From Candidatus Dadabacteria bacterium (GTDB taxonomy: Bacteria > Desulfobacterota_D > UBA1144 > Nemesobacterales > Nemesobacteraceae), in contig CATOTB010000006.1 in the NCBI GenBank assembly GCA_951812945.1, forward strand, positions 77,335 to 141,334: a stretch of DNA of 64,000 bases, read 5' to 3'. Each line of letters starts with the position of its first letter. The first letter of the stretch is position 1. Shown here one piece after another: positions 1,108 to 48,372 of this stretch. Below the pieces are notes generated by a model. The model searched no databases. It worked only from the letters and a program-made list of their open reading frames with translations, and was not told the origin of the DNA. The position numbers and the translations under genes are program-made.

Positions 1108-1247
1108 TCGCTGATTAAATTAGGAAAAACTGCCGCAACCTTTGGGTTGTTTACGTCTCTCTCCGTTGGCCGCGTGCTCATTTGACGCAATCTCGGAACA
1201 CCGGCTACTCTTTACGCCAGCGATGAAACCTGATTGGGAGGTTCAGC

Positions 1248-2996
1248 TTGGCGTCAACCCCTACAAACGACCACATCCGCTACGAGCCGGATGAGAAGTG
1301 CACGCCGCTCTCGTCCTTCGTCGTCGGCATACAGGGCATCGTGCTCGTGCTACCGCTTGCGGTTTCGATAGTGGTTATCAATGTTCTGGCGACCGGCCAG
1401 GACGAAGCATACCTGACCTGGTCCGTATTCTCGGCGCTGATAATCGTCGCGATAGTCACCGCGCTGCAAGCCTCCAGGATAGGTCGATTTGGCGCGGGGC
1501 ATCTGGTCGTCATGGGAGTGACGCCCAACTACATCCCGCTGTCGGTGCTCGCCTTGGATGAGGGAGGGCCAGCGATGCTGGCCAGCCTGATGGTTGTGTC
1601 CGCGTTCTTTTTCTTTGCGATAGCGACAAGGCTTCCGCAACTGCGGCGCGTGATAACGCCGACTGTGTCAGGCACAGTTCTTATGCTGATAGCCGTGATG
1701 GTGCTGCCCATCTGTTTGGATCGATTCGGGGAAGTACCGGAGGGTGCGCCGACATCCGCTGGGCTGTGCGTAGCTTTGGTAACGCTTGTGGTATCCACGG
1801 CGCTGATGCTGCGCGCCCCGAGGCGCTGGCGTCCGTGGTCCATACTGATCGGATTTGTGTCCGGCTGCATGGTCGCTGCCCTGTTGGGAGTGTACGACCT
1901 GGAGCCACTGTACACAGCACCGTGGGTCGGCATTCCCCAAGTCGGTTTCCAGGGATTGGACCTTACACTGACTGCCGGATTCTGGGCGCTGCTGCCGATG
2001 TTCTTGATTGTCACTCTGGTGCAGGCGATCAAAGGCATTGGAGACAACGTGGTGATTCAGCGGGTGTCGCGGCGCAGACCGAGGACGACCGATTTCCGGC
2101 TGCTGCAAGGTTCGCTCTACTCAAATGGGGTGGGTGTTTTGCTGTCGGGTCTTGCCGGAACGCCTCCTGCATCGCCATATTCGTCATTCACGGCGTCGGT
2201 CGTGAACATGACGGGAGTTGCCGCCCGCAATGTGGGATACGTCATAGCGATCATACTTCTGGGACTGGCATTGCTGCCAAAGTTCACGGGCGCGCTGCTC
2301 ACCATACCCAGTCCGGTGATGGGGGCATTTCTCTTGGTTGCTGTGGGAATATTTTTTGTCGAGGGAATACAGACTATCGTGCGGGACGGACTTGACTTTC
2401 AAAAGACCGTTGTGGTAGGCGTGTCGTTCGCGCTTGGCGCCGGGCTCGAGCAACAAAACATTCTTGAGAACTTGCTGGTGCACCCGTGGGGCACACTGCT
2501 TGGCAACGGCATCACTGTGGGCGCGGCAACGGCGATTGCGCTCAACGCCTTCCTGAATGTGACCAGTCCGCGTTCCAGGAAGCTTGAGATTCGACTGGAC
2601 TTTTCCGACCTGCCACGAATTGATGCCTTCATGCGGGAAGTTGCCGCCGATATGGGCTGGAGCGAGGAGGCGACCCAGCGGCTGCGTTCGGCGGGCGAGG
2701 AGACGCTGTCGAGCCTGTTACAGCCGGACAGCGGATATCCCGCGGATGGTGAGACGGACAAGGCTCCGCGCCTGATCATAGCCGTGCGTCCCGACGGCAG
2801 AGCAGCGGAGATGGAATTCATCTCGACGCTTGAGGACGAGGAGAACTTGGAGGACCGTCTTGCGTATCTGAATGAAGAGGACGAAAGCGTGGATGAGAGG
2901 GAAATATCGTTCCGCCTGCTGCGTCATTATGCTTCATCGGTGCGCCACCGGAAATATCAGGGGATGGATGTCGTTGCGGTGCGGGTCCAAGCGTAA
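1248..2996 (+). CDS. NCS2/SulP-fold (APC superfamily) permease with a ~150-aa C-terminal cytoplasmic extension (STAS-like or other regulatory domain, unresolved)
   Basis: 582 aa. TTG start preceded by GGGAGG. The N-terminal ~430 aa is polytopic membrane protein with a G-I-Q-G...PNYIPLSV pattern reminiscent of xanthine/uracil (NCS2) permeases. The C-terminal tail is soluble and acidic. GC-rich, inside the island. Confidence 0.55.
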   Translation: MASTPTNDHIRYEPDEKCTPLSSFVVGIQGIVLVLPLAVSIVVINVLATGQDEAYLTWSVFSALIIVAIVTALQASRIGRFGAGHLVVMGVTPNYIPLSVLALDEGGPAMLASLMVVSAFFFFAIATRLPQLRRVITPTVSGTVLMLIAVMVLPICLDRFGEVPEGAPTSAGLCVALVTLVVSTALMLRAPRRWRPWSILIGFVSGCMVAALLGVYDLEPLYTAPWVGIPQVGFQGLDLTLTAGFWALLPMFLIVTLVQAIKGIGDNVVIQRVSRRRPRTTDFRLLQGSLYSNGVGVLLSGLAGTPPASPYSSFTASVVNMTGVAARNVGYVIAIILLGLALLPKFTGALLTIPSPVMGAFLLVAVGIFFVEGIQTIVRDGLDFQKTVVVGVSFALGAGLEQQNILENLLVHPWGTLLGNGITVGAATAIALNAFLNVTSPRSRKLEIRLDFSDLPRIDAFMREVAADMGWSEEATQRLRSAGEETLSSLLQPDSGYPADGETDKAPRLIIAVRPDGRAAEMEFISTLEDEENLEDRLAYLNEEDESVDEREISFRLLRHYASSVRHRKYQGMDVVAVRVQA

Positions 2997-3039
2997 CGAC
3001 GGCTTGGATTGGCGAGCCAGCGCAAGGGAAAGGTCGAGT

Positions 3040-3945
3040 TTACGTAGTGATAATCGGCTCGATGAACTCAAGCATGGACTTGACGCATTCCTCTGGCTTT
3101 TCCAAGAGAAGAAGGTGCGTAGCGTCAGGCAGGAAGTCGTAGTCTACGGAGGACATATCACTCAGGTCGAGTGTTGGCAGGTATGAGTATGGCAAGGTCG
3201 GGTCAGCCCCGATGACCTTTGTCGGGCAGAGGAGCGACTGAAAGTCCACGAGTACGGCAAAGGCGCTTGCGTACTCTATTATCTGCGCCTGGTACTCAGG
3301 AGGGCAACAAGGTTCATACCCCTCTCCATTCTCACGCTCACGCAGGGTTGTTCTTGCATAAAGATCGAATACCCCGGGCACCACATGCTGGAAGGCTGGA
3401 ATGTAAGGAAGAATGTCCGCAAGTTCTTGCATGGTTTGAAATCGACTCGTGCTTTGACGGATACCTTTGGCCATACGTTTTGCGATATCTTCATAATCCT
3501 TAAAGCTCCGGCCAGGCTTGCAGAGAGGCGGGTCGAACAGAACCCGCGCTGCAAAGTCGCTGCCTTTTTTGGGTGATAGCAGAGTCGCCAGAGCCGCAAT
3601 TGAGTGGAACATGCCTATTCTGGGCTTTGCTCCATAGTGGCGGTCGATAGCCTCAACAATGGTGTCGTTGTCCTGAACCAATGTTGGAAGGCTATGGTTT
3701 TGAAGATCGCCTACCGGATTCCATCCATGGTTTCTGAGATCGTAGATTATTAGGTCGAAATCATTGGTCAGGAGCGACCAGAACGGATAATACAGGTCGA
3801 CTGCGAGGCCGTTGCCGTGGCTCATAACGAGTCGCGGTCCTGACGGATTTCCATGTTGCCGCAGCGTAATGACGGTTTCGTCGTCCACGCGGACATCGTG
3901 GGTGGAAAGCGGCTCAGGTAACTCCCATACGATTTCTGTAGTCAC
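3040..3945 (-). CDS. Alpha/beta-hydrolase fold protein, possibly a product-release or tailoring hydrolase of the PKS cluster
   Basis: 301 aa. An HG oxyanion motif (MSHGNGL), an HGWNP motif, and a nucleophile-elbow-like GMFHSIAA with a non-canonical F in the small-residue position. Overlaps the upstream PPTase gene by 4 nt, suggesting translational coupling. Confidence 0.55.
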   Translation of the reverse strand: MTTEIVWELPEPLSTHDVRVDDETVITLRQHGNPSGPRLVMSHGNGLAVDLYYPFWSLLTNDFDLIIYDLRNHGWNPVGDLQNHSLPTLVQDNDTIVEAIDRHYGAKPRIGMFHSIAALATLLSPKKGSDFAARVLFDPPLCKPGRSFKDYEDIAKRMAKGIRQSTSRFQTMQELADILPYIPAFQHVVPGVFDLYARTTLRERENGEGYEPCCPPEYQAQIIEYASAFAVLVDFQSLLCPTKVIGADPTLPYSYLPTLDLSDMSSVDYDFLPDATHLLLLEKPEECVKSMLEFIEPIITT

Positions 3946-4715
3946 TGGTAAATTCCTCGTCTTTCTGACACGTTACAGTTCAGTTGCTGTAATGACTGGT
4001 CGCCCAATTGGGACGGGGGAAGCTCATGTGCGATGGCTGCTGAGAAATCCTCGTTGCCAATGTATTCGACGCGCCAGTGCACTTCCGGCAGATGTGGGAA
4101 GCGAAATATGCTTATTCTCTCCTGATGCAAGGCTTGTGGCACTTCGAACTGAGACACATCAAGGGTAAAACCTAGGCCAAGAGCCTTGACGAGGGCTTCC
4201 TTGATGGTCCAGAGTCTGAAGAACAGTTGAACCCTATCCGATCCACGTGCACATGCAAGGGCGGACTGTTCATGAGGACCAAACACGGCTTCGCTCAGTT
4301 CGTCAAAATCCCTTCGGGAGACGCGCTCCTCTACATCCACGCCCAGCCGTCCATGGGGAACAAGAGCTATCAAGCCATGCTTTCTGCTGTGACTGAGGTT
4401 GAAACTGATGGCTGCCGGTTCCCCGTCTACTAGCGCAAACGGCTTTCCATAGTCAGATGAGCCGAAGCTGAGGCGTTCATTGCTGCAACCGAGCTGGCGA
4501 CAGAGGATAGACCGAAGCGCAACACGACACAGAGCAAACCTGCGACGAGGACCTGGGAGCGGATATTGGCGACAGCGCGCCTGCTCTTCCTCATTCAGCC
4601 ATAATAAAGATGATGCCTCACGGCTGGCATTAGGCCTCAGGTCTACATGTATGATGGTAACGGGACCAGCTTTATGGAAGAAACTCCACAAGCACCTTGC
4701 AGCAGAAGTGGACAT
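3942..4715 (-). CDS. 4'-phosphopantetheinyl transferase, Sfp type
   Basis: 257 aa. The two Sfp signature motifs are present (LGVDVEE and WTIKEALVKALG). Sits between the ACP and hydrolase genes of the PKS operon. Confidence 0.8.
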   Translation of the reverse strand: MSTSAARCLWSFFHKAGPVTIIHVDLRPNASREASSLLWLNEEEQARCRQYPLPGPRRRFALCRVALRSILCRQLGCSNERLSFGSSDYGKPFALVDGEPAAISFNLSHSRKHGLIALVPHGRLGVDVEERVSRRDFDELSEAVFGPHEQSALACARGSDRVQLFFRLWTIKEALVKALGLGFTLDVSQFEVPQALHQERISIFRFPHLPEVHWRVEYIGNEDFSAAIAHELPPSQLGDQSLQQLNCNVSERRGIYQ

Positions 4716-4747
4716 CAGATGCCGTTTACCCCTAAAGGAGCGAGGGG

Positions 4748-4993
4748 TTAAGAAGCGTTGGCTTCCAGGTACGCTATCAAGTCTCCAATCGTCGGAATCT
4801 CCCCGGCCTTCTCGGGAAGGAGGGAGACATTGAACTCCTGCTCGATCACTTTGGCGAATGACACTGCGTCCATAGAGGAAACACCCAGGTCAGCAAGGCC
4901 CTTGCCCAGGTCCAGCAACTTGCCTATCGGTTGTCCATCTACCTCCAAGTTTTCGTCTGCAAGTTGTCTCAGCCGCTCTTCAGTTGATGCCAT
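4748..4993 (-). CDS. Discrete acyl carrier protein
   Basis: 81 aa, acidic four-helix-type sequence with DLGVSSMDAV (an LGxDSL-like phosphopantetheine attachment site). Lies 112 nt downstream of the PKS stop on the same strand. Confidence 0.7.
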   Translation of the reverse strand: MASTEERLRQLADENLEVDGQPIGKLLDLGKGLADLGVSSMDAVSFAKVIEQEFNVSLLPEKAGEIPTIGDLIAYLEANAS

Positions 4994-5105
4994 AATATGC
5001 AGTCCTCCTTTTAAGAATTTAAGATATTAGAGCACAATGGTACAATATACAGGTGCTTGGGTCAATCGATTTTTCTCTAGTTTCCTCCGTGACGAGGCAC
5101 CCCAA

Positions 5106-8100
5106 TTACACCCAGTGACGCCTGCGCTGGAACGGATAGGTCGGCAGCGAAATGCGGCGGCGCGACTCCCCGGCGAACATGCCCTCAAAGGAAAGTGCCA
5201 GTCCCGCCTCGTATGCCCCTGCAACCGCTTCCGCAAAACCAGTACTGTCCTCCTCTGAATCCTCGTCGGATGGTCGCATCAGGCTCGCAAGCACGAATGG
5301 TGAGGCGGCAGCTTCCTCTCCGTCCGACGAGTCCGGCCACTGAAGGTTCACCTGCGGTCCCAATACCGCTCCGGGGCCAATCTCCACCACCGTATCCACT
5401 CCCAGCTCGGCAAGCGTGGAAACACCTGTGCCAAACGCCTCAGTTTCGCACGCCTGCGTACGCCAGTACGCCACGTCGAGTGGATTGTCCGCATCCACAA
5501 CTCGCCCCGTAACGCCGCTCACCAGAGTCAGGGATGGAGGTGAGACCGCACTCTCTGCAAATGCCACTTCCAGGCCGTTTAGAGATTGGTTCGGGTCCGC
5601 TCCCGGCAGCGCCGCCATCAGCGTGCCACGAGTCAAGGCAAGGCGCAATCCGTCCTCCAAGGTGAAGACTCCCGCAGCCCACGCCGCGGCAATCTCACCC
5701 GTTCCGTGCCCCAGTGCGACGTTCGGGCGGATCCCAACGCTCGCCCAAAGCGCCGTCAGCGCGCACTCCAATGCATAGAGAGCCGGCTGCGCCCAAGCTG
5801 CATCATTCAAATCGCCCGTTGCTTCGGCGCGCCCGAACATCACATCGAGTAGCGATGCTCCTTTCTCTGCGCGCACCACGGCGTCACAGTGGTCCAAAAC
5901 AGCGCGCACGACCGGCTCGCTGTCGTACAGCGCCTCGCCCATACCAACCCACTGGCTGCCCTCGCCTGTGTATAAGAATGCCACCCTTGTTACAGGCTGT
6001 GGAGCCGGTTTATCAGGCGTAGCGACAGTCTCCGCGAGTTTCGTCAGCCCTGCACGCAGAGACTGCGTATCCCCGAACACTACGGCGGCACGATGGTCAA
6101 AATGGCTGCGTCCGACACTCGCCGTCCACGCTATGTCAGCAAGTGCAGGCGCTTTTGGAGACGACCCGGCAATGTGCTCGTCGAGCCACGACAGGTATTG
6201 TCCCGCCATGTCGCGCAGGGCGCCGTCCGACTTGCCCGATAGCGGCAGGAAACGCACCGTGCGCTCCGTTAGTCCGTCTGTAGCCAGCGGCAGATTCGCA
6301 ACCGGCTCCGGCAGGGAAACGGGCACCGGCAGTGCGGCACCCCTGAGCGACTGCACTCCAGCACTTGCGCTGTCATCCTCTGTCGCGATTCCGTAGCCTT
6401 CCACCACCATATGTGCGTTTGCGCCTGACATGCTGAACGCGCTTACTGCCGCGCGTGGCGGCTTGTCAGAATGGGGTGGCCAGTCGGTTTTTTCAGAAGT
6501 TACCCGCACGGGCAGTTGGTCCCAGTTGATTTGTGGATTCGGCTCCTTGAAATGCAGATGTTTCGGAATGACACCCTGCTTCATCGCCAGCACAGCCTTT
6601 ATCAGGCCGGCAACGCCCGCCGCCGTCTCCAGATGTCCGATATTTGACTTTACGGTGCCTATCAGCAGCGGACAGTCGGCGTCGCGCCCTCTGCCGTACA
6701 CCGAGCTGGCTGCGTGTACTTCAATTGCGTCGCCCAATTGGGAACCTGACGCGTGCGCTTCGAGATAGTCAACATCCGTTCCGGTGAGACCCGCCCGAAC
6801 AAGCGCCGCCTCCATAACACGTTCCTGTGCTGGACCGTTCGGGACGGTCAATCCCGCGCTTGTCCCGTTCTGGTTAACAGCAGAACCCTTGATGACGCCC
6901 CATATTCGATCTCCGTCAACCTCCGCCTCGCTCAGCCGTTTTAAAACGAGCATTCCGCAGCCCTCGCCGCGTACATGACCGTCCGCAGAAGCATCAAAGG
7001 GGTGACACTGCCCGCTCGGCGACAGCATCCCCACATCCAGCATGAATCTGGAAACATCGTGCGACAGAGCCGCATGCACGCCTCCGGCGAGAGCCAGGTC
7101 CACCTCGCCCCGCTGTAGCCCACCAACGGCTTGATGCGCCGCAGCCAATGCTGAGGCGCAGGCCATATCGATGGCCATCGCCGGGCCCTCCAGACCCAGT
7201 GCGGACGCGACCCGCCCGGTGGTGATGCTGGCCGTTGTGCCGAGGTGAATGCCAGTCTTACCGCTGGCCTCAATCACATGTCGGTATTCGCTGCCGGCGA
7301 CTCCGGCATACACCGCGGTGCGGCTGCCCCGCAGGCTGTCGGGAGCGATTCCAGCGTCTTCGACAGCCTCCCAACTCGTCTCCAACATCATTCTTTGCTG
7401 TGGGTCCATCATCCGCGCTTCTATCGGCGCAATGTGAAAGAATCGTGAGTCGAACCACTCGATATTCTCAACAAACGCACCGTGCAGGTGTGTGGTGCCC
7501 TCGGAGTTCGAGTCTCCAAAGGCGTCCCTACGCGGATCGCCAGCCTGGCGTCCGTCGGTCACTGCGTCAGTGCCCGATTCCAGAAGATGCCAGTATTCCG
7601 AAAGGTTTTTCGCGCTTGGGAAGCGGCATGCCATGCCGACTATCGCTATGTCGTCATCCTCAGTAGCGACGAGTGGGCGCGGCGGGGGTGCGGCTGTCTC
7701 GGGTGTTGGAGCCGTCCCATCGTCCCCATCCAGTTGACCGAGTTCGTCCGCCAGATAATGCGCTAAGGTTGTGACGTCGGGATAGTCGAAGACAGCTGTG
7801 TTGGAGACGACATACTCGCCCGCGAATGCGCGGTTGAGCCGGTTTCTCAGTTCTACTGCCATCAATGAGTCCATACCCAGATCGAAGAACCCCACCGTTG
7901 GCGTCGGCGCCGACGGCAGCCGCAGAACTGCCTGTACTTCCCCCTGCAGGAATGACACCAGCATGCCTTCGCGTTCCGCCACAGTCGTCTTCCGCACTCT
8001 GGACATCAGGTCGTCCGCCTGAGCGGGCGAGTCGGCGTCGGCCTCGGGACTGGTGGACAGCAGGTCTTCTAGCAGGGAGGGACGGTCTTCGACAGCCTCC

Positions 8101-11100
8101 TCAAAAACTGCCCAGTCCATGGACATCACCACGGAATTCGTTACGTCCTGGCGCACAAGTCTGTCAAACGCCCTGAGACCTTGCTGCGGTGTAAACCAGC
8201 GGCCACCGAGCGCCGCTCGTTGCCGTTCAATCCGGTCTCGTTGTTCCGCCGCTTCGCCGATCTCTGACCACGCCCCCCAGGCAATGGCCTGTCCCGGAAG
8301 CCCCACCGCCCGCCGGTGGGCGGCGAGCTGGTCCAGGAACGCATTGGCTGCGGCGTGGTTTGCCTGGCCCGGATTGCCCATGACGCCAACTCGGCTCGAA
8401 AAGAGGATGAAGAGCTCCAGATCGCGGTCCGCCGTCGCACGGTGCAGGTGCCAAGCGCCCAGCACTTTCGGCCACAGCACCTGCTCGAACCTCTCCCAAC
8501 TCTGGTTCGACAGTGAAGCGTCCGACAACACTCCCACGCTGTGAATCACTCCGCCGAGCGGCGGAAGTTCCCGATCCATCCGCGCCAGCATGTCGTCCAC
8601 AGCTGAGGCATCCGTCACATCTGCCAGTTCCACCCTCACCGTGGACCCGCGTTTACGCAACGAGTCGATCTCTTTTTCAACCTCGGGGTCTGGTGGTCGT
8701 CGTCCATTCAGCACGATCGCCCCCGCACCGTGATCCGCTAACCAGCCGGCCACGGCGCACCCGATACCGCCCAGGCCGCCGGTCACCAAGTAGGTCCGGT
8801 CCTGCCGCAAACCACCCCCCCCCGCAAGCGGTGGTGTCGTCACGACGATCTTCCCGAGGTGCCGGGCCGATCGCATGAATCTCAACGCAGCTCCCGCTTC
8901 GGCCAGGGGCCACCTGCTGTGGATAAGCGGTTTCAGTTCTCCCGCCGTAAGGCGCTCCATCACGTCCCGGAGAACCCTTCCGACCCAAGCCGGCTCAGTC
9001 TTCTTCAAAACATCCAACTCCAGGATGGAGTAGGCAACGTCGGGACGAACTGCCGCCATCTCCTCCTCGCTCAGAATGTCCCGCCTGGCCAATTCCACAA
9101 ACCGGCCACCCTGTGCTAGGCATGACAGACTCGCCTCGATGAATCCCTCTCCCGTCAGGCTGTTGAGCACCACGTCGACTCCTGCGCCGTCCGTGGCCTC
9201 GAGGATCTCTTCCCCGAACTTTGTCGTGCGGCTATCGAACACATGCTCCACACCGATGGAACGGAGATAGGGCTGCTTCGATGCACTCGCCGTGGTATAC
9301 ACCTCGATGCCTACAGCACGCGCCAACTGGATGGCCGCGAGTCCCACACCTCCAGCACCTGCGTGAATCAGCACCCGTTCGCCAGCGTTCAACCCTGAGA
9401 GCTCATACGAGAATGCGGCTGAGACGAACACATTCGGCACCGTGGCGAGACCCGTCACCGAGATTCCCGATGGCGCGGGCGCCACCAATTCCTCCCGTAT
9501 GATCATTTCGGCCGCGAACGCACCACCGAACCCCAATCCAACCACATGATCGCCGGCCGAGACGGTTGACACCTCGGAACCCACATCGAGCACGTGGCCA
9601 CACATCTCCTTGCCTAAGTTCCCCTCTTCAATGAAGCCAAGCGAACGAAATACATCCCAGAAATTCATTCCGGCAGCCTCGACCGCGACGCGGACTTCTT
9701 TCGGCTCCAGGGAACGCTCCGGCAGCGGCTTGACGTAAGGCTTGTCGAATATGCCGTCCGGGTCCGGAGCCAGCACCCAGGCCGACTGCTGCGGCAATGT
9801 TAACCGCTCCGTGTTGGTCCCGGCCCGGACCAGGCGGGCTACCATACGTCGGCCGTAGCGATGTGCGATGTGATTCTCGTGATCGGGATACAGCAGTTCG
9901 TCCGGGAGTTCAGGCGACTGCGTTTTTGAGGGGTCCAGGTCAATCATCCTCGGCTTTAGATGCGCCGCTTCGCGGGACACCACCTTCCCGAAACCCCATA
10001 GCGTCGCGCCGGCAAGTTCCCCGCCAAGCTCCTTCTCCAGCACCTGCGCGCCCCGCGTAAGAAACCACACTCCGTTCTCGGGCACCGCATCGGAGTCAAC
10101 CAGCCCCTGCGTCAACGCCAGTGCGCTCGCCACCGCTCGCCTCGTGTCCTTCGCCATCTCTTCGTTTGTCGCATTCAGGCCGTGGCCGCCCAGCGCCACG
10201 AGGTGCACGACTCCTTTCAGAGGCGCATCCCCGGGTAGGCACTCCAACAGCGATTGCCACGACTCGCGCCGCTCCATGTCCACCGTTGACCGGACAATGC
10301 CGGACCCGTCCACTTCTGAATTCCCGTTCTCCGGGAGTTGATGGTCCGCCAGCACGACTGTCTGGTTGCGTGCGGCCAGATCTGCTGCCAGTTCTTCGGC
10401 CACGCCAGCGCTGTCCGCCGCCAGAACCCAGATGCCCGGTCTTTCGGTCACCTCAGCCGGACCCCGCGCCACGATCACACCCTTATCCGGCATCTCGGCC
10501 GAGTCGGACTCTTCCAACCCCAGCACTTCTATTTCCCCGAAACCCACGTCAGTGAGTACGCGACGCCACACAGCAGGATCCACCAAGGCGTGTTGCGGTC
10601 GGTAGGCATCGGCGAACCGCCACCAGCCGTCCAACGGCCCGAAAGTCAAGTCCATCCAACCCATACCCCTCAGGTTCTCGAGCGCGACCAGCTGTCCTGA
10701 TGGCGCGAGAAGCCGCCGGCAGTGCGCAAGCGTCTCATTTAGGTATTGCGTGGCGTGCAACACATTGGATGCAATCACCAGGTCGTAACCGTGGAAATCG
10801 AATCCCTGCTCCACCGGATCCTTCTCGATATCCAGCATGCGGTAATCTATCGACGCTTCATCGCCTCCGAAGCGCGCCTCTGCTTCCGCAAAGAAGCCCG
10901 CCGAGATATCCGTGTACATGTAGTCGAACCGTCCTTCCGGGAGTTCCGGCAGGATGGCCGCGGTCGCCGACCCTGTACCCGCCCCGACTTCGATCACCCT
11001 GAGGCGTCGGCCGTCGGGCAACCCCGCCACAAGAGTCTGAACCGTTTCTCTCAGTATCCGGTTCGCCGCACGCGCCACCGGAGCTTTTCGATACAGATCG

Positions 11101-14100
11101 CCCGGGGTCGGGTCTCCGCTGCTAAACAGGATTGTCAACGGGTCCGCTCGGCCCAGCAGCACGTCTGCCAGGGCGTTACCAGACCGTCGAAAAAGCCCGA
11201 TCTCGGTCAAGCCGTGGGGATATAGCTCAGCTATTCGGGTAGCGAATTCTTCTGTGTCAAGCGGCATTTCATCCGGCAAGGGATCCCCGGATCCGATCCT
11301 CACGACGAAGTTGCCGTCCACCTCCTCCAACACTCCGGACTTGGCCAGCATCTCGAGCATCCGGCGGAACAAGCGCTTATGCTCCTCCACGACATTCAAG
11401 CGCCGCCGCAAGTCCTCTGAATCCACGGCCGCGCCCCCCTCGCGTTCCCACCCCAGCTTCTTCAAGGTCTCTAGCGCGCAGGATCGAGACCACCTCTCCA
11501 GGTCAGTCAGGAGGGCGCTTCTGTCCTTGGGCGTGACTCCTTCGTCGGCCAAATAATCTGAGAGCAACCCCGAGCGCGTTGCAACCGTTGCCTGAGACGC
11601 GAGGAAATCTGCGGACAGCATTCCGGGCGTGAGAGCCCTTTCGCGCCACACAACCTCATACAGCAGTTCATTCACCCCTTCGACTGCGGAGAGCAGCGCC
11701 GCCCGCGTCGCGCGTTTCACCATGTATCCGCTCAACCCGCCAAGCAGAACTCCATTGGGATCGTAGATGCGCAATTCTCCGTTCCAGACCTCGGGCGGCT
11801 CGCCCTGTTCCACTTCCGTTCCTTGGGAAGCCTCACTCATGCGCACGTGGCAGAGCAAGCGATCCGGCAGCCGATCCGCCAGCCACAGTCGCTCCCAGCC
11901 AAATGGTAGATAGGTGGTTTCCTCTTCTGCCCCGCCTGGATTGCGCGCTGCGGCCATAACCTGAAAGCAACCGTCCAGCAGGAGCGGATGAACGTCCAGC
12001 CCGTTGCGGCCGAGAGCTTCAGGGAAAGAAATCTCGCCTAACGCCTCGCCCGGCCGGGACCAGACCCTCCCGAGCGTACGGAAGAACGGGCCGAGATTAA
12101 TCCCCGTACTGGCCCGGGCACGGTAGTAGGCTGCCACGTCTATTGGCGACAGAGGGGCCTTGAGGCTTTCGAGATCGATCCGCCTACCGGCTTCCGGCAT
12201 CGGGGCGTCCGGCGATACGCGGCCTTCCACGTGTAACGTCCAGCCCTCTCCACTCCCCTTGCTGAATATCTGGACACGACGCGAATTTGCCCGCTCGGAA
12301 GAATCAAGCACAACCTGCACCTTTCGGCCCTCGTCACCGGTACCGTCCTCGGAACCCTCCTCCGGGAAAATCAGCGCGTTGTGCAGCTGCATGTCCTCCA
12401 CAACCACCGCGCCGCTCTCTTCTGTAAGGGATACCGATGCCGCCATGGCCCCATAGAGCGCGCCCGGAGCTATAACCCGGCCGAACACCCGGTGGTCGCT
12501 CAACCACTCCGGATCCGACCGGAACACTTCTGTCTCGAATGTGACCTCGCCGCTGGCGGATTCGTGCCGGACCCCCAGCAAGGGGTGGCCGACGCCCGAG
12601 CGTTGTTTTCTATTTGAATCAAGCCAATGGCGTTCGCGTTGGAATGGATAGCTTGGCAACGAGATGCGACGGCGCGCCTCCCCCGCGAAGAGCCCTTCAA
12701 AACGAATCGGGAGCCCCGCCTGATACGCTTCCGCGACCGCCCGCGTGAAATCGGCGCCATCCGCGGACGCTCGGGATTCACCAGACGGTGGGCGCAGGCT
12801 TGACAGCACCGTGGGTGGCGGTGTCTGTACCGAGTCCGGCCAAGCCGCGCCCGTCATCGTGGCCAGGATCGGTCTCGGCCCTATCTCCAACACCAAGTCC
12901 ACCCCGAGTTCCGCCAACGTCCGGACACCGCGGGCGAACGCCACCTTCTCGCGGGCATGCTGCCTCCAGTAGGCTCCGTCCAGCGCTTGGCCAGGCTCCA
13001 GCGCTTGGCCAGTCAGGTTGCTGACCACGGTGAGGGAGGGTGGTTCGATCGCCACACTATCCAAGGAAGCTTCCAGCATGTCCAGAGCTGGCTCCACCAA
13101 GGCGCTGTGGAACGCGCGGGCTGTGTTCAGCCGTCTTACCCGGACTCCTTCCGATTCGAAGCGCTTCGAGATGGTTTCAATCTCTGCAACCGGGCCGCTC
13201 ACCACTTGGTGGCCGCCGTTGTCCGCCGAGATGCTCAGCCCAGCACTGGCAGATGATTCGTTCAGCTCCTCGACCGTTGACGCCACTCGTGCCGGAGTGG
13301 CAAAAACCGCTGCCATTGCGCCCGGTTCGGTTTCCGACAGCAGGGTGCCCCGCGCCGCGGCAAACCGCATTCCATCCTCCATGCTGAACACTCCCGCTGC
13401 CTGCGCCGCCGCCAGTTCCCCGACACTGTGCCCCAACACCACGCTGGGACGAACCCCTACACTCGACCAGAGCGCCGTGAGCGCGCACTCGAGGGCGTAG
13501 AGGGTCGGCTGCTCCCACGCCGTATCGCTCAGATTGCCTTCGCCGCACCCGAACATCACGTCAAGCAACGAGGCGCCTCTTTCAGCCCGAAACACCTCCT
13601 CACAGCGGTCGAGAACCGCCCGCGCCACCGGCTCACGTTCGTAGAGCGCCTTTCCCATGCCGGCCCATTGGCTTCCTTGCCCGGTATAAACAAACGCCAC
13701 TTTCATCGCTGTTTGCGGCCCTGGACTCTCGCCCACATTCCCCAGCGCTTTCAGCCCCTCCCGTAGCGACCCGGTATCCCGAAACACCACGCCTGCACGA
13801 TGATCAAAATGGCTCCTCCCTACGCCTGCAGTCCACGCCATGTCCGAGAGTAAGGGTTCTAAAGAGGTGCTTTGGGAAGCAAGATCCTCTGGATGCTCGT
13901 CCAGCCACAAGAGGTAACGCTCCGCAAGTTCCCGGAGTGCGGTCACCGATTTGCCGGACAGCGGCAGCAACCGGGTCTCGCGCTTCCTTAACCCTTGCTC
14001 AGGCAGCGGCAAACTCTCCGCGGCCTTCGGCAAAGAGACTGTCACTGTCTGGGCTGAGCCAACAAGCTGACGCTTCCCGTAGGGCAATTCCCCTGGGGCA

Positions 14101-15479
14101 ATGTATTCTTCCACCACTATGTGGGCGTTCGTCCCGGATATCCCGAAGGAGTTTACTCCTGCCAGTCGCGCCCGTCCGCCACGCTGAGGTAAGTCCATCA
14201 TGGACGAAGTAACCTTTAAAGGCAGTTGGTCCCAATCGAGGCTAGGGTTGGGAACCTGGAAATGCAGGTGCTTCGGAATCACGCCGCGCTGCATCACCAG
14301 CACTGCCTTGATCAGACCAGCGATTCCGGCAGCCGACTCGAGGTGGCCGATATTGGTCTTTACGGAACCGATCAAAAGAGGATGATCGGCTTTGCGTCCT
14401 CTGCCGTAGACAGCGGAGACGGCCTCGATCTCAATCGGGTCGCCTACAGCTGTTCCAGTTCCGTGCGCCTCCAGGTAATCCACATCCGAAGCGGGAACTC
14501 CGGCCTGCGACAGCGCCGCTTCCATCACCTGTTCCAATGCGGGGGTGTGCGGTACGGTCAGTCCGGTGCCGGGTCCGCCGTTATTCACCGCCGAGCCTCG
14601 GATCACCCCCCAGATCCGATCGCCATCCTCCTCGGCCTCGCTCAGCCGTTTCAGGATAACGACGCCGCAACCTTCACCGCGCACGTAACCGTTCGCAGAC
14701 GCATCGAACGTCTTGCACTGCCCGTCCGGAGACAGCATCATCGCATCCGCACGGAGTTCGAAAATGCGACTGTTCAGGATGGCCTGCACACCGCCTGCAA
14801 TGGCCAGATCCGCCTTGCCCTGCTGCAGGTCTGCCACCGCGTCGTGGACCGACACCATGGACGACGCGCACGCGGCGTCCACTGCCTTTGCTGGTCCCAT
14901 GAGGCCCAGCACGAAAGAGACCCGTCCGCTGGTACCGTTGAGGTTTGTGCCGCTCAGAGCATAAAGACATGAGGCGGCCTCGGCAGGTTTCCTTGACTCC
15001 ACTACCAGCATCCTGTATTCGTCGTTGCTGATCCCGGTGTATACCCCGGTGCGGCTGCCCTTCAGCCGATCCGGATCCATACCCGCATCCTCAAGAGCCT
15101 CCCAAGTGGTTTCCAGCATCATCCGCTGCTGTGGATCCAGCAACTGGGCCTCGACCGGAGAAATACGAAAGAACCCCGCGTCGAACTGCTCGATTCCGTC
15201 GACATAGCCACAGAAACGACAGGCCTTGCTCGGAATCTGTCCATCGGGGAAAAGCTCGTCCATACGCCCGACGCCGGAACCTGGGACGCCCTCCGTCACC
15301 ACGTTCTGGCCGGCTTCGAGCAGGCGCCAAAAGGCCGGTATACTCGGTGCGCCGGGGAACCGGCACCCCATGCCCACGATTGCTATCGGTGGACCGAGTC
15401 CAGATTTTTCCTGTCTCTGAATTTCAGAGTGGGGCGATGATTCCCCAGAGGAATCGCAAGACTTGTTTGATTCCGTCAT
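5106..15479 (-). CDS. Type I polyketide synthase with domains KS-AT-DH-cMT-ER-KR-ACP-KS-AT(degenerate)
   Basis: 3457 aa, ATG preceded by GGGAGGGAG. KS1: DAACASS Cys, EAHGTGT, NIGHLE. AT1: GHSVGE plus RAFHS (malonyl-type). DH: HRVFGRVIAPG plus LLDGCFQ. cMT: VIEVGAGTGS SAM motif. ER: LIHAGAGGVGLAAIQLA. KR: TGGLGGIG. ACP: FFDLGMDSL. KS2: DMACAS, EAHASGS, NIGHLE. AT2: GHGTGE, no Ser. Ends ...YPFQRRRHWV. Confidence 0.95.
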   Translation of the reverse strand: MTESNKSCDSSGESSPHSEIQRQEKSGLGPPIAIVGMGCRFPGAPSIPAFWRLLEAGQNVVTEGVPGSGVGRMDELFPDGQIPSKACRFCGYVDGIEQFDAGFFRISPVEAQLLDPQQRMMLETTWEALEDAGMDPDRLKGSRTGVYTGISNDEYRMLVVESRKPAEAASCLYALSGTNLNGTSGRVSFVLGLMGPAKAVDAACASSMVSVHDAVADLQQGKADLAIAGGVQAILNSRIFELRADAMMLSPDGQCKTFDASANGYVRGEGCGVVILKRLSEAEEDGDRIWGVIRGSAVNNGGPGTGLTVPHTPALEQVMEAALSQAGVPASDVDYLEAHGTGTAVGDPIEIEAVSAVYGRGRKADHPLLIGSVKTNIGHLESAAGIAGLIKAVLVMQRGVIPKHLHFQVPNPSLDWDQLPLKVTSSMMDLPQRGGRARLAGVNSFGISGTNAHIVVEEYIAPGELPYGKRQLVGSAQTVTVSLPKAAESLPLPEQGLRKRETRLLPLSGKSVTALRELAERYLLWLDEHPEDLASQSTSLEPLLSDMAWTAGVGRSHFDHRAGVVFRDTGSLREGLKALGNVGESPGPQTAMKVAFVYTGQGSQWAGMGKALYEREPVARAVLDRCEEVFRAERGASLLDVMFGCGEGNLSDTAWEQPTLYALECALTALWSSVGVRPSVVLGHSVGELAAAQAAGVFSMEDGMRFAAARGTLLSETEPGAMAAVFATPARVASTVEELNESSASAGLSISADNGGHQVVSGPVAEIETISKRFESEGVRVRRLNTARAFHSALVEPALDMLEASLDSVAIEPPSLTVVSNLTGQALEPGQALDGAYWRQHAREKVAFARGVRTLAELGVDLVLEIGPRPILATMTGAAWPDSVQTPPPTVLSSLRPPSGESRASADGADFTRAVAEAYQAGLPIRFEGLFAGEARRRISLPSYPFQRERHWLDSNRKQRSGVGHPLLGVRHESASGEVTFETEVFRSDPEWLSDHRVFGRVIAPGALYGAMAASVSLTEESGAVVVEDMQLHNALIFPEEGSEDGTGDEGRKVQVVLDSSERANSRRVQIFSKGSGEGWTLHVEGRVSPDAPMPEAGRRIDLESLKAPLSPIDVAAYYRARASTGINLGPFFRTLGRVWSRPGEALGEISFPEALGRNGLDVHPLLLDGCFQVMAAARNPGGAEEETTYLPFGWERLWLADRLPDRLLCHVRMSEASQGTEVEQGEPPEVWNGELRIYDPNGVLLGGLSGYMVKRATRAALLSAVEGVNELLYEVVWRERALTPGMLSADFLASQATVATRSGLLSDYLADEGVTPKDRSALLTDLERWSRSCALETLKKLGWEREGGAAVDSEDLRRRLNVVEEHKRLFRRMLEMLAKSGVLEEVDGNFVVRIGSGDPLPDEMPLDTEEFATRIAELYPHGLTEIGLFRRSGNALADVLLGRADPLTILFSSGDPTPGDLYRKAPVARAANRILRETVQTLVAGLPDGRRLRVIEVGAGTGSATAAILPELPEGRFDYMYTDISAGFFAEAEARFGGDEASIDYRMLDIEKDPVEQGFDFHGYDLVIASNVLHATQYLNETLAHCRRLLAPSGQLVALENLRGMGWMDLTFGPLDGWWRFADAYRPQHALVDPAVWRRVLTDVGFGEIEVLGLEESDSAEMPDKGVIVARGPAEVTERPGIWVLAADSAGVAEELAADLAARNQTVVLADHQLPENGNSEVDGSGIVRSTVDMERRESWQSLLECLPGDAPLKGVVHLVALGGHGLNATNEEMAKDTRRAVASALALTQGLVDSDAVPENGVWFLTRGAQVLEKELGGELAGATLWGFGKVVSREAAHLKPRMIDLDPSKTQSPELPDELLYPDHENHIAHRYGRRMVARLVRAGTNTERLTLPQQSAWVLAPDPDGIFDKPYVKPLPERSLEPKEVRVAVEAAGMNFWDVFRSLGFIEEGNLGKEMCGHVLDVGSEVSTVSAGDHVVGLGFGGAFAAEMIIREELVAPAPSGISVTGLATVPNVFVSAAFSYELSGLNAGERVLIHAGAGGVGLAAIQLARAVGIEVYTTASASKQPYLRSIGVEHVFDSRTTKFGEEILEATDGAGVDVVLNSLTGEGFIEASLSCLAQGGRFVELARRDILSEEEMAAVRPDVAYSILELDVLKKTEPAWVGRVLRDVMERLTAGELKPLIHSRWPLAEAGAALRFMRSARHLGKIVVTTPPLAGGGGLRQDRTYLVTGGLGGIGCAVAGWLADHGAGAIVLNGRRPPDPEVEKEIDSLRKRGSTVRVELADVTDASAVDDMLARMDRELPPLGGVIHSVGVLSDASLSNQSWERFEQVLWPKVLGAWHLHRATADRDLELFILFSSRVGVMGNPGQANHAAANAFLDQLAAHRRAVGLPGQAIAWGAWSEIGEAAEQRDRIERQRAALGGRWFTPQQGLRAFDRLVRQDVTNSVVMSMDWAVFEEAVEDRPSLLEDLLSTSPEADADSPAQADDLMSRVRKTTVAEREGMLVSFLQGEVQAVLRLPSAPTPTVGFFDLGMDSLMAVELRNRLNRAFAGEYVVSNTAVFDYPDVTTLAHYLADELGQLDGDDGTAPTPETAAPPPRPLVATEDDDIAIVGMACRFPSAKNLSEYWHLLESGTDAVTDGRQAGDPRRDAFGDSNSEGTTHLHGAFVENIEWFDSRFFHIAPIEARMMDPQQRMMLETSWEAVEDAGIAPDSLRGSRTAVYAGVAGSEYRHVIEASGKTGIHLGTTASITTGRVASALGLEGPAMAIDMACASALAAAHQAVGGLQRGEVDLALAGGVHAALSHDVSRFMLDVGMLSPSGQCHPFDASADGHVRGEGCGMLVLKRLSEAEVDGDRIWGVIKGSAVNQNGTSAGLTVPNGPAQERVMEAALVRAGLTGTDVDYLEAHASGSQLGDAIEVHAASSVYGRGRDADCPLLIGTVKSNIGHLETAAGVAGLIKAVLAMKQGVIPKHLHFKEPNPQINWDQLPVRVTSEKTDWPPHSDKPPRAAVSAFSMSGANAHMVVEGYGIATEDDSASAGVQSLRGAALPVPVSLPEPVANLPLATDGLTERTVRFLPLSGKSDGALRDMAGQYLSWLDEHIAGSSPKAPALADIAWTASVGRSHFDHRAAVVFGDTQSLRAGLTKLAETVATPDKPAPQPVTRVAFLYTGEGSQWVGMGEALYDSEPVVRAVLDHCDAVVRAEKGASLLDVMFGRAEATGDLNDAAWAQPALYALECALTALWASVGIRPNVALGHGTGEIAAAWAAGVFTLEDGLRLALTRGTLMAALPGADPNQSLNGLEVAFAESAVSPPSLTLVSGVTGRVVDADNPLDVAYWRTQACETEAFGTGVSTLAELGVDTVVEIGPGAVLGPQVNLQWPDSSDGEEAAASPFVLASLMRPSDEDSEEDSTGFAEAVAGAYEAGLALSFEGMFAGESRRRISLPTYPFQRRRHWV
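5310..5990 (-). other. PKS domain AT2, degenerate and predicted inactive
   Basis: aa ~3164-3390. The active-site motif reads GHGTGE (nt 5697-5711) instead of GHSxG. The ~70 aa carrying the specificity motif are absent relative to AT1. Confidence 0.75.
6390..7655 (-). other. PKS domain KS2 (second ketosynthase)
   Basis: aa ~2609-3030. Cys2774 in DMACAS, His2909 and His2949 present. Confidence 0.8.
7740..7982 (-). other. PKS domain ACP (integrated)
   Basis: aa ~2500-2580. GMDSL with Ser2538. Confidence 0.8.
8220..8798 (-). other. PKS domain KR (ketoreductase) with His in place of the catalytic Tyr
   Basis: aa ~2228-2420. TGGLGGIG Rossmann motif. SSRVGVMGNPGQANHAAANAF has H2375 (nt 8355-8357) where the canonical motif is GQxNYAAAN. 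Confidence 0.7.
8835..9782 (-). other. PKS domain ER (enoylreductase)
   Basis: aa ~1900-2215. NADPH-binding LIHAGAGGVGLAAIQLA. Confidence 0.8.
10530..11342 (-). other. PKS domain cMT (C-methyltransferase)
   Basis: aa ~1380-1650. ExGxGxG SAM-binding motif VIEVGAGTGS at aa 1496-1505. Confidence 0.75.
11730..12602 (-). other. PKS domain DH (dehydratase)
   Basis: aa ~960-1250. HxxxGxxxxP with His996, and DxxxQ with D1169. Confidence 0.75.
12810..13700 (-). other. PKS domain AT1 (acyltransferase, malonyl-type signature)
   Basis: aa ~594-890. GHSVG Ser685 and an RAFHS specificity motif. Confidence 0.8.
14106..15389 (-). other. PKS domain KS1 (ketosynthase)
   Basis: aa ~31-458. Catalytic Cys204 is encoded at 14868-14870, and both catalytic His motifs are present. 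Confidence 0.85.
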
Positions 15480-15565
15480 CGAAATCTCCCTCCCAAGATT
15501 ATGAGCTGATGGTTCTGTCTGTTCCCTTAATCTGAACTGTTTCCGTCTTAAAAAACGGTTTTCAG

Positions 15566-25421: not shown

Positions 25422-26063
25422 TTACTCTTTTTCTTTTCTAATTTGTTTTGAATTAGATACTTTTTCAGCTAATTCTTCTAGGCTACGGCTTAATGCTTTT
25501 TGGTAAGCTTTGCCGAAAATCTTTCCAATATTTCCACAAAAAGCACCACTGCCACCCTCACTATGTCCTCGTCCACCTGCGGTTGTCCCAAGTAACTTTT
25601 CTCCTGTCTGTCCTCTAGCGTCTATTCCGAGGACAATTTCTGCTTCTCCTCTACATTTATCACTCCAGAAACCAGCGCGACACTCTACAAGTGGAAGAAA
25701 ATGGTCAAGACTAATTAAAACATAACCAGATATATTTTCCCTTTTCATATCATCTATGGTTGGATTGGTTTTCCTTATCGTAACTTCCTCAAATATGTTT
25801 TTGGTCGTATTTGTTAAAGATACTTGTATTGAATCCCCAGAATCGAATGCGACACTATGAGTACTACACACAAAACTACTTACCTCTATATCTCTTGAAA
25901 AGATGGTCGACCCTTCATCTATAACAACTGCCCAGTCACCTTTAATTTTCTCTGAATAGGAAGATCGTAGCTTAACTGCAGTTGCTGCGGGTCCAGTAAC
26001 TTTGTGTGCACAACCCGTTACGAAAATTACAATTGTCAAAATAATTGCGCTAGCATATTTCAT
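25422..26063 (-). CDS. Hypothetical lipoprotein in an AT-rich insert
   Basis: ~213 aa starting at MKYASAIILTIVIFVTGC (a lipobox). The surrounding ~1.1 kb is markedly AT-rich (estimated below 40% GC), unlike its flanks. Confidence 0.5.
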   Translation of the reverse strand: MKYASAIILTIVIFVTGCAHKVTGPAATAVKLRSSYSEKIKGDWAVVIDEGSTIFSRDIEVSSFVCSTHSVAFDSGDSIQVSLTNTTKNIFEEVTIRKTNPTIDDMKRENISGYVLISLDHFLPLVECRAGFWSDKCRGEAEIVLGIDARGQTGEKLLGTTAGGRGHSEGGSGAFCGNIGKIFGKAYQKALSRSLEELAEKVSNSKQIRKEKE

Positions 26064-26224
26064 AAGTGCCTCCAGTGTAATCCTGTACATCAACTACTTC
26101 GTCTGCAATTCTTTCCCGTGCCGTTTTTCCCAATTGAACTTGCAAGTTTTTGAATAACCGATAAGTCCTAAATATTTAGTAGAGGTTGTAATTCTAGACT
26201 CACTTTAAAGTCAAGATGTTTCTT

Positions 26225-47044: not shown

Positions 47045-47695
47045 TTATCTCGGAACGTATTTTCTTTTCCTTGACCAAAGGAGCAGGTCAAATTCATCAA
47101 GACTGATTCCCAGTTCGTGGGCGGCTTCCGTCATAAGACTTTCGGTTTCAAGGTATCTTTTTTTCGTCAGAGGATATTTCGTCTCGCCTATGATCCCCAG
47201 TTCGAAAAGGGACGCCAGGTTGTTTCGGTCAAGAATCGCATAGCCGGAGAATCCCAGATTCCTCAGAAAATGGCTTGCCTGCATATACCCAAGCCCTTTA
47301 ATTCCGGGATTTTTCGCGAGGAAATCTCTTCTTTCGACCCTGTCTTCAAAAGAACTGACAAGCAATTTTAGAAGAAACCCGTGTTCTTTTTTAAGATATT
47401 CCCTTGTAAAAACAATATAGCGCGACGCGTTTTCGGCATATTTATGAATCGTTTCAATGCGGCCCAGCAGTTCATCTTCTTCTCCGTTCCCAAGTTTTTC
47501 TCCTATGGCCCTCATGCATTGACCGGCTATTTGGGGACCGACACCGGAACTCAGTATGCAGAATGAGAGTTCATGGAATATCCCGAGGTCATCGGCCTTT
47601 TGGAGAGTTTCTTTGAATTCCAAAAGCTGGTTCCGTATTTCTTCCCCTCTGAGCTCGTAGAGTTCCAGGAGTTCTCGTCTTTGTTTCTCAGTCAT
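47045..47695 (-). CDS. 8-oxoguanine DNA glycosylase/AP lyase, Ogg2 (archaeal) type
   Basis: 216 aa. HhH-GPD element GIKGLGYMQASHFLRNLGF and the catalytic Lys/Asp context. Confidence 0.65.
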   Translation of the reverse strand: MTEKQRRELLELYELRGEEIRNQLLEFKETLQKADDLGIFHELSFCILSSGVGPQIAGQCMRAIGEKLGNGEEDELLGRIETIHKYAENASRYIVFTREYLKKEHGFLLKLLVSSFEDRVERRDFLAKNPGIKGLGYMQASHFLRNLGFSGYAILDRNNLASLFELGIIGETKYPLTKKRYLETESLMTEAAHELGISLDEFDLLLWSRKRKYVPR

Positions 47696-47720: not shown

Positions 47721-48365
47721 TTATTTCAGTATTTCGCCTGTTTTTTCACTCCAGAGAAACAGATCCATTTCATCGAAATCAAATCCGTTTCTCTCAGAGA
47801 ATCTCTTGAACTTGTTTTCAATCTCGATGTATTTGGATCTTGAGTGTGGCGCCCGCGGGGATTCAGTTATATTGAGTTCAAAGAGGCACTGGAGTATGTG
47901 CTTATCAAGTATCGCGTAGCCGCGAAAACCGATGTTTCTTAGAAAATGGCTTGCTTCCTTAAAACCGAGTCCCTTTATATCCTTGTTAAGCGCGAAAAAA
48001 TCTCTTCTCTCGACCGGGTCTTTAAACGATAGAAGAAGCGGCCTCAGTTTGAGTCCAAATTCGCGGGCAAGATAGGCTCTTGTGTGGATCACATGTTTTG
48101 AGCGCACGTTTGGAAATCTGTATACTCCCCGAAGTTTCGCCCTTAGTTCATCCTCGCTTGCGCTCGGAAGAATACTCTTTACGGCGCTGAGCGCGCTCAG
48201 TCCCATCTTGGCGCTTGTTCCGGCCGTGAATATGCAGAAAACCAGTTCTTCGAAGATCACTTCTTCAGAAGCGTTTTTGATGATGTTTTCGAATTCTTTG
48301 AGCTTATGGCGTATCTCGGGGGTTTTTCGCGGAAGGCTCTCCCTTATTGACCGTACTGTCAACAT
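47721..48365 (-). CDS. Ogg2-type 8-oxoguanine DNA glycosylase paralog (tandem copy)
   Basis: ~214 aa from MLTVRSIRE... Contains DIKGLGFKEASHFLRNIGF. Collinear similarity to the adjacent copy along the whole length. The start is uncertain. Confidence 0.6.
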   Translation of the reverse strand: MLTVRSIRESLPRKTPEIRHKLKEFENIIKNASEEVIFEELVFCIFTAGTSAKMGLSALSAVKSILPSASEDELRAKLRGVYRFPNVRSKHVIHTRAYLAREFGLKLRPLLLSFKDPVERRDFFALNKDIKGLGFKEASHFLRNIGFRGYAILDKHILQCLFELNITESPRAPHSRSKYIEIENKFKRFSERNGFDFDEMDLFLWSEKTGEILK

Positions 48366-48372
48366 CCAGGGC

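Follow-up and report, generated by a model that had tools for sequence, protein, structure and literature searches.

The 'sponge symbiont ubiquitous PKS', or Sup, is a small polyketide synthase (PKS) that dominates sponge metagenomes, with mid-chain-branched fatty acids as its proposed product (PMC4245539, PMC3908369). Its clusters occur irrespective of bacterial taxonomy (PMC9426513); the sources for the cluster, Fieseler et al. 2007 (AEM 73:2144) and Hochmuth et al. 2010, are cited in PMC3908369, PMC4245539 and PMC9426513, and PMC3908369 names clone pAPKS18 as the source of a 'Permease SupE (ABE03914)'. Here, we analyse a stretch of 64,000 nucleotides (nt) from Candidatus Dadabacteria bacterium (assembly GCA_951812945.1, contig CATOTB010000006.1; hereafter the window), and in particular the second acyltransferase domain (AT2) at the C-terminal end of a PKS of 3457 amino acids (aa). 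We consider it probable that the window holds a Sup-type cluster, supA to supE, in which AT2 is a dead pseudo-domain and the preceding ketosynthase (KS2) extends the chain onto SupB, a discrete acyl carrier protein (ACP) malonylated in trans. The 2007 drawing of the synthase by Fieseler and colleagues reportedly includes an extra KS and a partial AT.

Several other megasynthases offer points of comparison. In the AT-less modules of trans-AT PKSs, the KS is adjoined downstream by a linker or 'AT-docking' remnant, and a free-standing AT loads the ACP (leinamycin LnmJ, bacillaene Pks). Mammalian fatty acid synthase (FAS) holds a pseudo-methyltransferase and a pseudo-ketoreductase as vestigial structural domains. 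Mycocerosic acid synthase (MAS)-like enzymes and fungal highly reducing PKSs share the fully reducing domain set KS-AT-DH-(MT)-ER-KR-ACP with module 1 of the protein studied here, and MAS and PpsC are among its PDB sequence matches; in contrast to it, they lack both a KS-AT remnant at the C-terminus and a discrete AcpP-like partner.

We assign the cluster to Sup because its architecture, its accessory genes and the hosts of its relatives all point there. As in SupA, the protein has one fully reducing, C-methylating module (KS-AT-DH-MT-ER-KR-ACP), and a carrier protein, a phosphopantetheinyl transferase (PPTase), a hydrolase and an NCS2-type permease lie beside its gene, which matches the small accessory genes of Sup, the SupE permease included. 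In Sup clusters, supB encodes an ACP, supC a PPTase and supD a hydrolase. The likeness may extend to an occurrence in sponge symbionts of many phyla; methyl-branched fatty acids are the proposed product of Sup, and no feature of the window contradicts membership. The 79 closest loci all belong to metagenome-assembled genomes (MAGs), with the host unstated in the record titles; they include Ca. Poriferisocius and Ca. Palauibacter irciniicola as well as members of SAR202/Dehalococcoidia, Latescibacterota, Binatia, Nitrospirales, Gemmatimonadota, Acidobacteria, and Alpha- and Gammaproteobacteria. This multi-phylum spread agrees with PMC9426513. Among representative genomes, the nearest is that of a Ca. 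Binatia MAG (locus L074; loci are numbered in this way throughout), with 85% identity across the AT2 region and collinearity with window positions 1165-15389.

Motifs, deletion and fold of AT2

The supA-type gene lies on the minus strand, a point missed in the original prediction along with the AcpP-like carrier gene at 4748-4993 and the Sup arrangement of the cluster. A single 3457-aa open reading frame (ORF) carries the domain order KS1-AT1-DH-cMT-ER-KR-ACP1-KS2-AT2 (by Pfam, KS-AT-DH-MT-ER-KR-ACP-KS-AT), which is found likewise in ~65 related loci. The gene, its first AT and the parts of module 2 are as follows.

5106..15479, minus strand: supA-type PKS gene, 3457 aa (ORF list and translation, Pfam domains)
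12789..13694, minus strand: AT1, aa 596-897, intact, with GQGSQ, GHSVGE and RAFHS (Pfam and motifs)
6390..7679, minus strand: KS2, aa 2601-3030 (motifs, orthologue conservation, a clade of its own)
7146-7169, minus strand: KS2 catalytic Cys in DMACASAL
6741-6761, minus strand: KS2 catalytic His in EAHASGS
6624-6644, minus strand: KS2 catalytic His in NIGHLE
5991..6389, minus strand: linker domain between KS and AT in module 2, aa 3031-3163, with the strongly conserved AWTAxVGRSHFxHRA
5310..5990, minus strand: AT2 remnant, aa 3164-3390, reduced to the large alpha/beta subdomain
5583..5612, minus strand: AT2 deletion junction 'ALPGADPNQS', aa 3290-3299, the site of ~72 missing aa
5109..5309, minus strand: post-AT linker, aa 3391-3457, with the C-terminal end ...SLPTYPFQRRRHWV followed by the stop codon

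The protein ends three residues past the post-AT linker motif YPFQRRRHW, and this C-terminus is conserved family-wide.

The two AT domains differ at the positions on which catalysis depends. AT1 carries GHSVGE (aa 683-688, nt 13416-13433) and RAFHS (aa 788-792, nt 13104-13118), just as the original prediction had it, whereas AT2 reads GHGTGE (aa 3257-3262, nt 5694-5711), with Gly at the nucleophile position; here the motif had been recognised correctly and its position had not, since the range 5697-5711 omits the codon of the first Gly. The range given for the whole domain, 5310-5990, corresponds exactly to the AT2 core. AT2 also reads GEGSQ where GQGSQ is expected, and it keeps the equivalent of Arg117. 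In a pairwise alignment with AT1, AT2 lacks the entire stretch from 'GAMAAVF...' to '...HSALVEP'; the RG and PPS motifs are separated by 35 aa in AT2, compared with 107 aa in AT1, a shortening of ~72 aa, and the AT2 core measures 248 aa vs 316 aa in AT1. Alignment to the crystal sequence of the CurL KS-AT (4mz0) falls into two blocks, with query 26-256 matching CurL 485-720 and query 264-414 matching CurL 800-936, which leaves ~80 CurL residues (720-800) unmatched, and the Pfam Acyl_transf_1 match covers model positions 2-126 of 319 in AT2 vs 2-296 in AT1. The earlier estimate of a domain ~70 aa shorter and missing the catalytic-His region is therefore borne out by motif spacing and by both alignments. 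The deletion preserves the reading frame, and the column affected by the substitution is the homologous one in a domain match with an E value of 4e-37, which speaks against chance or error.

Going by FabD and DEBS AT structures, the missing block is the small ferredoxin-like subdomain together with the xAFH motif of the catalytic His. In AT domains this subdomain forms half of the substrate cleft. Compared with an active AT, AT2 lacks the Ser of GHSxG, the catalytic His of (H/Y)A(F/S)H and the small subdomain, and it deviates from the combination of GQGSQ and carboxylate-binding Arg, reading GEGSQ with the Arg present in the window and varying at both sites family-wide; what it retains is the alpha/beta large-subdomain fold between the KS-AT and post-AT linkers. 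With neither a Ser nucleophile nor a catalytic His, and with the small subdomain gone entirely, AT2 should be unable to act as an acyltransferase. The prediction that it is catalytically dead and cannot transfer malonyl groups is thus strongly supported.

The remnant is predicted to fold and is still under selection. The ratio of non-synonymous to synonymous substitution rates (dN/dS) is 0.16-0.20 for the AT2 core (Nei-Gojobori, four orthologues) and 0.06-0.34 for the other domains, so the remnant is under purifying selection in the range of active domains. An AlphaFold2 model of linker, AT2 and post-AT linker, built with 67 family sequences, reaches a predicted local distance difference test score (pLDDT) of 90.2 and a predicted template modelling score (pTM) of 0.92. 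Its top Foldseek matches are cis-AT KS-AT didomains, led by CurL 4mz0 (E 1e-24, TMq 0.76) and followed by the didomains of GfsA, DEBS and ZmaA, with TMq also ~0.76 for GfsA and DEBS. A fold that is kept while the catalytic residues are relaxed is the signature of a pseudo-enzyme domain retained for structural reasons. The best reading of AT2 is therefore a structural pseudo-domain, whose linkers and large subdomain have been retained and would pack against KS2. In annotation, it would be wrong to count AT2 among the active ATs or to predict an AT2 'specificity'.

AT2 in relatives of the cluster

A protein database search with the last 414 residues of supA as the query returned more than 90 full-length matches, all of which terminate in ...PFQRRRHW and show elbow variants such as GHGTGE, GQGLGE, GQDLGE, GHGIGE and similar. 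Among 96 database homologues with this ending, the nucleophile column holds G in 80, D in 8, S in 4, Q in 2 and E in 2, and the AT2 connector measures 14-41 aa in 94 of the 96 instead of ~107 aa. We also scanned genomes, one per species, which gave 569 relatives, of which the best 79 loci were analysed; AT2 length could be read in the 71 of these 79 that have a readable reading frame from KS2 to the stop codon. A full-length AT2 occurs in none of the 71. Sixty have a core of 202-252 aa consisting of the large subdomain only (AT1, 316 aa), two a shorter core of ~166 aa, and nine have no core (2-26 aa), L058 among the latter, probably through a frameshift. The orthologues therefore form a series from large-subdomain-only AT2 through shorter stubs to KS and linker only. 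In the AT-less forms, the KS-AT linker domain has been kept and follows KS2 directly, together with the post-AT linker. The AT core has been fully deleted in 8-9 lineages, including Ca. Poriferisocius and other Acidimicrobiia, all of which keep KS2 with its Cys-His-His, SupB, SupC and SupD; even the structural role of the remnant is consequently dispensable.

The catalytic positions of the remnant have relaxed as well, in agreement with the original call of a dead AT2. Across the 59 Sup-type remnants among the 60 large-subdomain forms, the Ser92-equivalent is G in 46, D in 10, S in 2 and K in 1; the His91-equivalent takes 13 different residues, the Gln11-equivalent is Q in 13/59 and the Arg117-equivalent is R in 33/59. 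As a control, AT1 shows GHSxGE in 73/73 aligned sequences, and its GQxSQ, Arg and xAxHS are also conserved. The loss of AT2 is evidently ancestral to the family and inherited rather than specific to this genome, and would be a defining, ancient hallmark of a known and widespread PKS family in sponge symbionts.

A sequencing or assembly artefact is extremely improbable, given that dozens of assemblies, made independently and spread over different phyla, share the in-frame deletion and the non-Ser residue. The frameshifts in supA of some long-read relatives speak for it; otherwise it is an a priori possibility. An error at the Ser codon, which the original prediction had named as the finding that could overturn it, is excluded by orthologue conservation and by the dN/dS of 0.16-0.20. 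Nor is a collapsed segment tenable, since purifying selection at the codon level is continuous across the deletion junction.

KS2, SupB and the rival models of module 2

In the window, KS2 has the Cys-His-His triad of an elongating ketosynthase, with C2774 as its Cys. Among the Sup orthologues, the Cys and the second His are each present in 70/70; the first His is kept in 67/70 and replaced by Asn in L031, L034 and L041. KS2 is thus predicted to be competent and functional. In a neighbour-joining tree of 70 KS1 and 71 KS2 sequences, the two form reciprocally monophyletic groups, with 71/71 in the KS2 clade, and mean identities are 0.70 within KS1, 0.66 within KS2 and 0.57 between them. This reciprocal monophyly implies that the KS-AT duplication predates the family radiation and that KS2 has been kept since. 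The separate clades rule out a recent duplication of, or gene conversion between, KS1-AT1 and KS2-AT2. An ancestrally stand-alone KS2-AT2 gene was also considered and rejected: the 645-aa form in L001 is a truncation in one relative, and the other loci have the full gene.

Beside supA lie the following accessory genes.

4748..4993, minus strand: supB-type discrete carrier protein, 81 aa, with DLGVSSMD, AcpP-like (ORF)
3942..4715, minus strand: supC-type Sfp/HetI-like PPTase (Pfam ACPS and AASDHPPT_N; NCBIfam HetI-like)
3040..3945, minus strand: supD-type alpha/beta hydrolase, 301 aa, with an FHSIA nucleophile elbow (Abhydrolase_6)
1248..2996, plus strand: supE-type NCS2-family permease, convergent with the operon (Pfam Xan_ur_permease)

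SupB matches exclusively type II FAS ACPs among PDB sequences (Aquifex, E. coli, B. subtilis, mitochondrial), and its NCBIfam AcpP matches are weak; the PDB matches of the in-line ACP1 are type I PKS carrier domains only. An 81-aa carrier gene with a PP-binding domain occupies the equivalent place after the PKS in L001-L004, and most of the 79 loci have the set of SupB, PPTase, hydrolase and permease alongside the PKS, in one orientation or the other. SupB is therefore predicted to complete module 2. Across the family, module 2 combines a competent KS2, a dead and vestigial AT2 and a free AcpP-like ACP.

We propose a model in which module 1 (KS1-AT1-DH-cMT-ER-KR-ACP1) would make a reduced, methyl-branched acyl chain, which KS2, by means of its Cys-His-His triad, would accept from ACP1. 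KS2 would then carry out one more decarboxylative condensation with malonate held on the discrete SupB, which may be malonylated in trans by AT1 or by the housekeeping FabD. Since SupB resembles the carriers of type II FAS, the case for FabD as the donor is no weaker than that for AT1. The SupB-bound beta-ketoacyl product could be released by SupD or processed by type II fatty-acid enzymes, and by the latter route the methyl branch would come to lie mid-chain, which agrees with the published hypothesis.

The main rival to this scheme is a non-elongating transfer station, similar to a KS0, in which KS2-AT2 would take the chain onto its Cys and pass it to SupB or SupD with no condensation. Such a role would suit a module that has neither a working AT nor reducing domains, and it is compatible with the Asn at the first His in three Sup orthologues and with the multimodular relative L035, whose terminal KS keeps its Cys, has lost both His (EAS..., VSN) and stands ahead of a SupD-like hydrolase. 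However, the His residues of a KS serve malonyl decarboxylation, not acyl transfer, and their retention in Sup KS2 (67/70 and 70/70) is unexpected for a pure transacylase, for which reason we regard a transfer station as rather unlikely. The original prediction had left two options, a KS2 served in trans by AT1 or a KS2 that does not extend; the conserved triad makes the latter less likely, and the former is widened by FabD as a potential donor. The remnant may instead have taken on a new non-catalytic job beyond the support of KS2, for example in docking SupB, SupD or a trans-acting transacylase, as its low dN/dS, the high conservation of the G-x-X-x-G elbow and flanking helices, and a compact, confidently modelled fold would allow. 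Yet the 8-9 lineages without an AT core retain the KS2 triad, SupB, SupC and SupD, which indicates that whatever the remnant does is dispensable, and we consider a new job improbable. Least credible of these is an AT2 that still acts as an acyltransferase through a different nucleophile or partner residues. Asp (10/59) or Ser (2/59) at the nucleophile position and the Arg117-equivalent in the window would favour it, and the retained Ser and Asp do count against our interpretation, but the window and 46/59 orthologues have Gly, which is not acylatable, the catalytic His and the small subdomain with its half of the active-site cleft are deleted, and the oxyanion and Gln positions are variable. 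Residual activity of this kind is very improbable.

Other observations also weigh against the reading that we favour, a dead AT2 and an extending KS2 in a Sup-type cluster. The purifying selection on the remnant would also fit a new non-catalytic function instead of pure scaffolding. By Pfam, the 64-kb window contains no FabD or other FAS II gene, the rest of it being housekeeping. The grounds for the Sup assignment itself are the architecture, the accessory genes and the hosts in which relatives occur; searches with SupD and with a KS1 amplicon, and a cluster look-up, had no named SupA or sponge amplicon among their matches, which were unnamed or generic MAG entries. Sup is called 'monomodular' in PMC3908369, PMC4245539 and PMC9426513, where KS2, AT2 and SupB go unmentioned, and our full-text literature search, with Fieseler 2007 and Siegl 2011 outside its reach, found nothing specific on a second KS or AT of SupA.

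The comparison with trans-AT PKSs bears on how module 2 may have arisen. As in their AT-less modules, module 2 has no working cis AT, its KS-flanking linker has been kept and its ACP would be loaded in trans, and the shortest Sup variants, with KS2 and linker only, look alike. In contrast to trans-AT systems, KS2 is a paralogue of a cis-AT KS, sister to KS1 and outside the trans-AT clade, and its best sequence and fold matches are cis-AT didomains. The Sup cluster has no dedicated, free-standing trans-AT gene, since Pfam detects no discrete AT either within the cluster or elsewhere in the 64-kb window, and the AT large subdomain is still kept in most members. The pseudo-domains of mammalian FAS offer a second parallel, in that a once-catalytic domain stays folded and selected while inactive; in Sup, by contrast, the pseudo-domain is an AT, a whole subdomain has been lost and some lineages have deleted it fully. 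Tentatively, and as a conjecture that we would hold to be less probable than its negation, the Sup family may record a cis-AT module in the course of becoming AT-less and trans-loaded, driven by an AcpP-like SupB that FabD could load, with KS2 and SupB forming a bridge from a methyl-branched primer to type II FAS. If this were true, the mid-chain-branched fatty acids of sponges would be explained.

Cluster context and implications

The remaining domains of the supA-type protein are given here for completeness.

14100..15407, minus strand: KS1, aa 25-460, with DAACASS, EAHGTGT and NIGHLE (Pfam and motifs)
7752..12587, minus strand: reducing loop and in-line carrier, from DH to ACP1 (Pfam)
11694-12587, minus strand: DH (Pfam)
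10560-11162, minus strand: cMT (Pfam)
8841-9704, minus strand: ER (Pfam)
8262-8795, minus strand: KR (Pfam)
7752-7949, minus strand: ACP1, with GMDSL at 7863-7877 (Pfam)

The supC stop and supD start overlap by 4 nt (3942-3945), which suggests translational coupling, and 112 nt separate the PKS stop from the supB start. SupD has 2549 homologues, the 120 listed being 65-100% identical. A supE-type permease adjoins the cluster in L001-L003 and many further loci, and two adjacent SupE-like permease genes lie upstream of supA in L065 and L078 (Acidimicrobiia). The cluster coincides with a GC-rich island at ~1165-15500: GC content is 0.58-0.66 in the PKS (500-nt windows), 0.47-0.50 just beyond 15500 and mostly 0.46-0.53 in the remaining window, and housekeeping genes (LolA, FtsK, NuoN, ParAB) flank it. 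Both features are consistent with horizontal acquisition of the sup cluster. Against the Binatia locus L074, synonymous divergence of supA is 1.3-2.4 over module 1 (0.77 in ACP1) and 0.23-0.60 from KS2 to the stop codon, with protein identities of 57-79% and 76-88%, respectively, and in L037, L013, L051 and L066 module 1 is more similar to the window and KS2-AT2 less similar. This mosaic pattern suggests recombination within the gene. Elsewhere in the window, two adjacent paralogous Ogg-HhH (8-oxoguanine DNA glycosylase) genes occupy 47045-47695 and 47721-48479 on the minus strand, and a 223-aa ORF at 25422-26093, also on the minus strand, has no Pfam match at E<=1e-5.

Some relatives depart from the common arrangement. 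In L001, which is syntenic and 84% identical at the nucleotide level, positions 9962-11923 correspond to window 7067-5106 and supA is reduced to its last 645 codons, with the KS2 Cys lost; phage-tail-like and BNR-repeat genes lie upstream of the cut supA, and supB-E are intact. The cut could reflect either a decaying cluster or an assembly join. L071 (Ca. Aldehydirespirator) carries a tandem pair of sup clusters, each with an AT-less KS2. Giant multimodular PKSs with repeated Sup-like modules (KS-AT-DH-MT-(ER)-KR-ACP) are found in L035, L039, L042 and L057, which are Bryobacterales and Rhodothermales MAGs; at the end of L035, the KS with Cys and without His stands together with a Ser-less AT remnant, GKGAGA, and the SupD-like hydrolase. 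Database matches to the 3457-aa PKS are nearly all fragments of 160-720 aa, and in the long-read loci L002-L004 the gene is split by frameshifts, so that automated annotation of supA genes often comes out in fragments.

Our work adds a quantified pattern of AT2 loss and a natural truncation series down to an AT-less KS, and it shows that the AT2 remnant is under purifying selection and that the carrier of module 2 is AcpP-like. In surveys of PKSs from sponge microbiomes, Sup clusters predominate, and their product is so far a proposed one. SupA would effectively be bimodular, its second module joining a competent KS to a dead AT and to an AcpP-like carrier that is free, and this constrains biosynthetic models. 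Heterologous reconstitution must therefore include SupB and a malonyl donor, either AT1 or FabD, and the natural AT2 truncation series provides a ready-made experiment on how much of the AT scaffold a KS needs.

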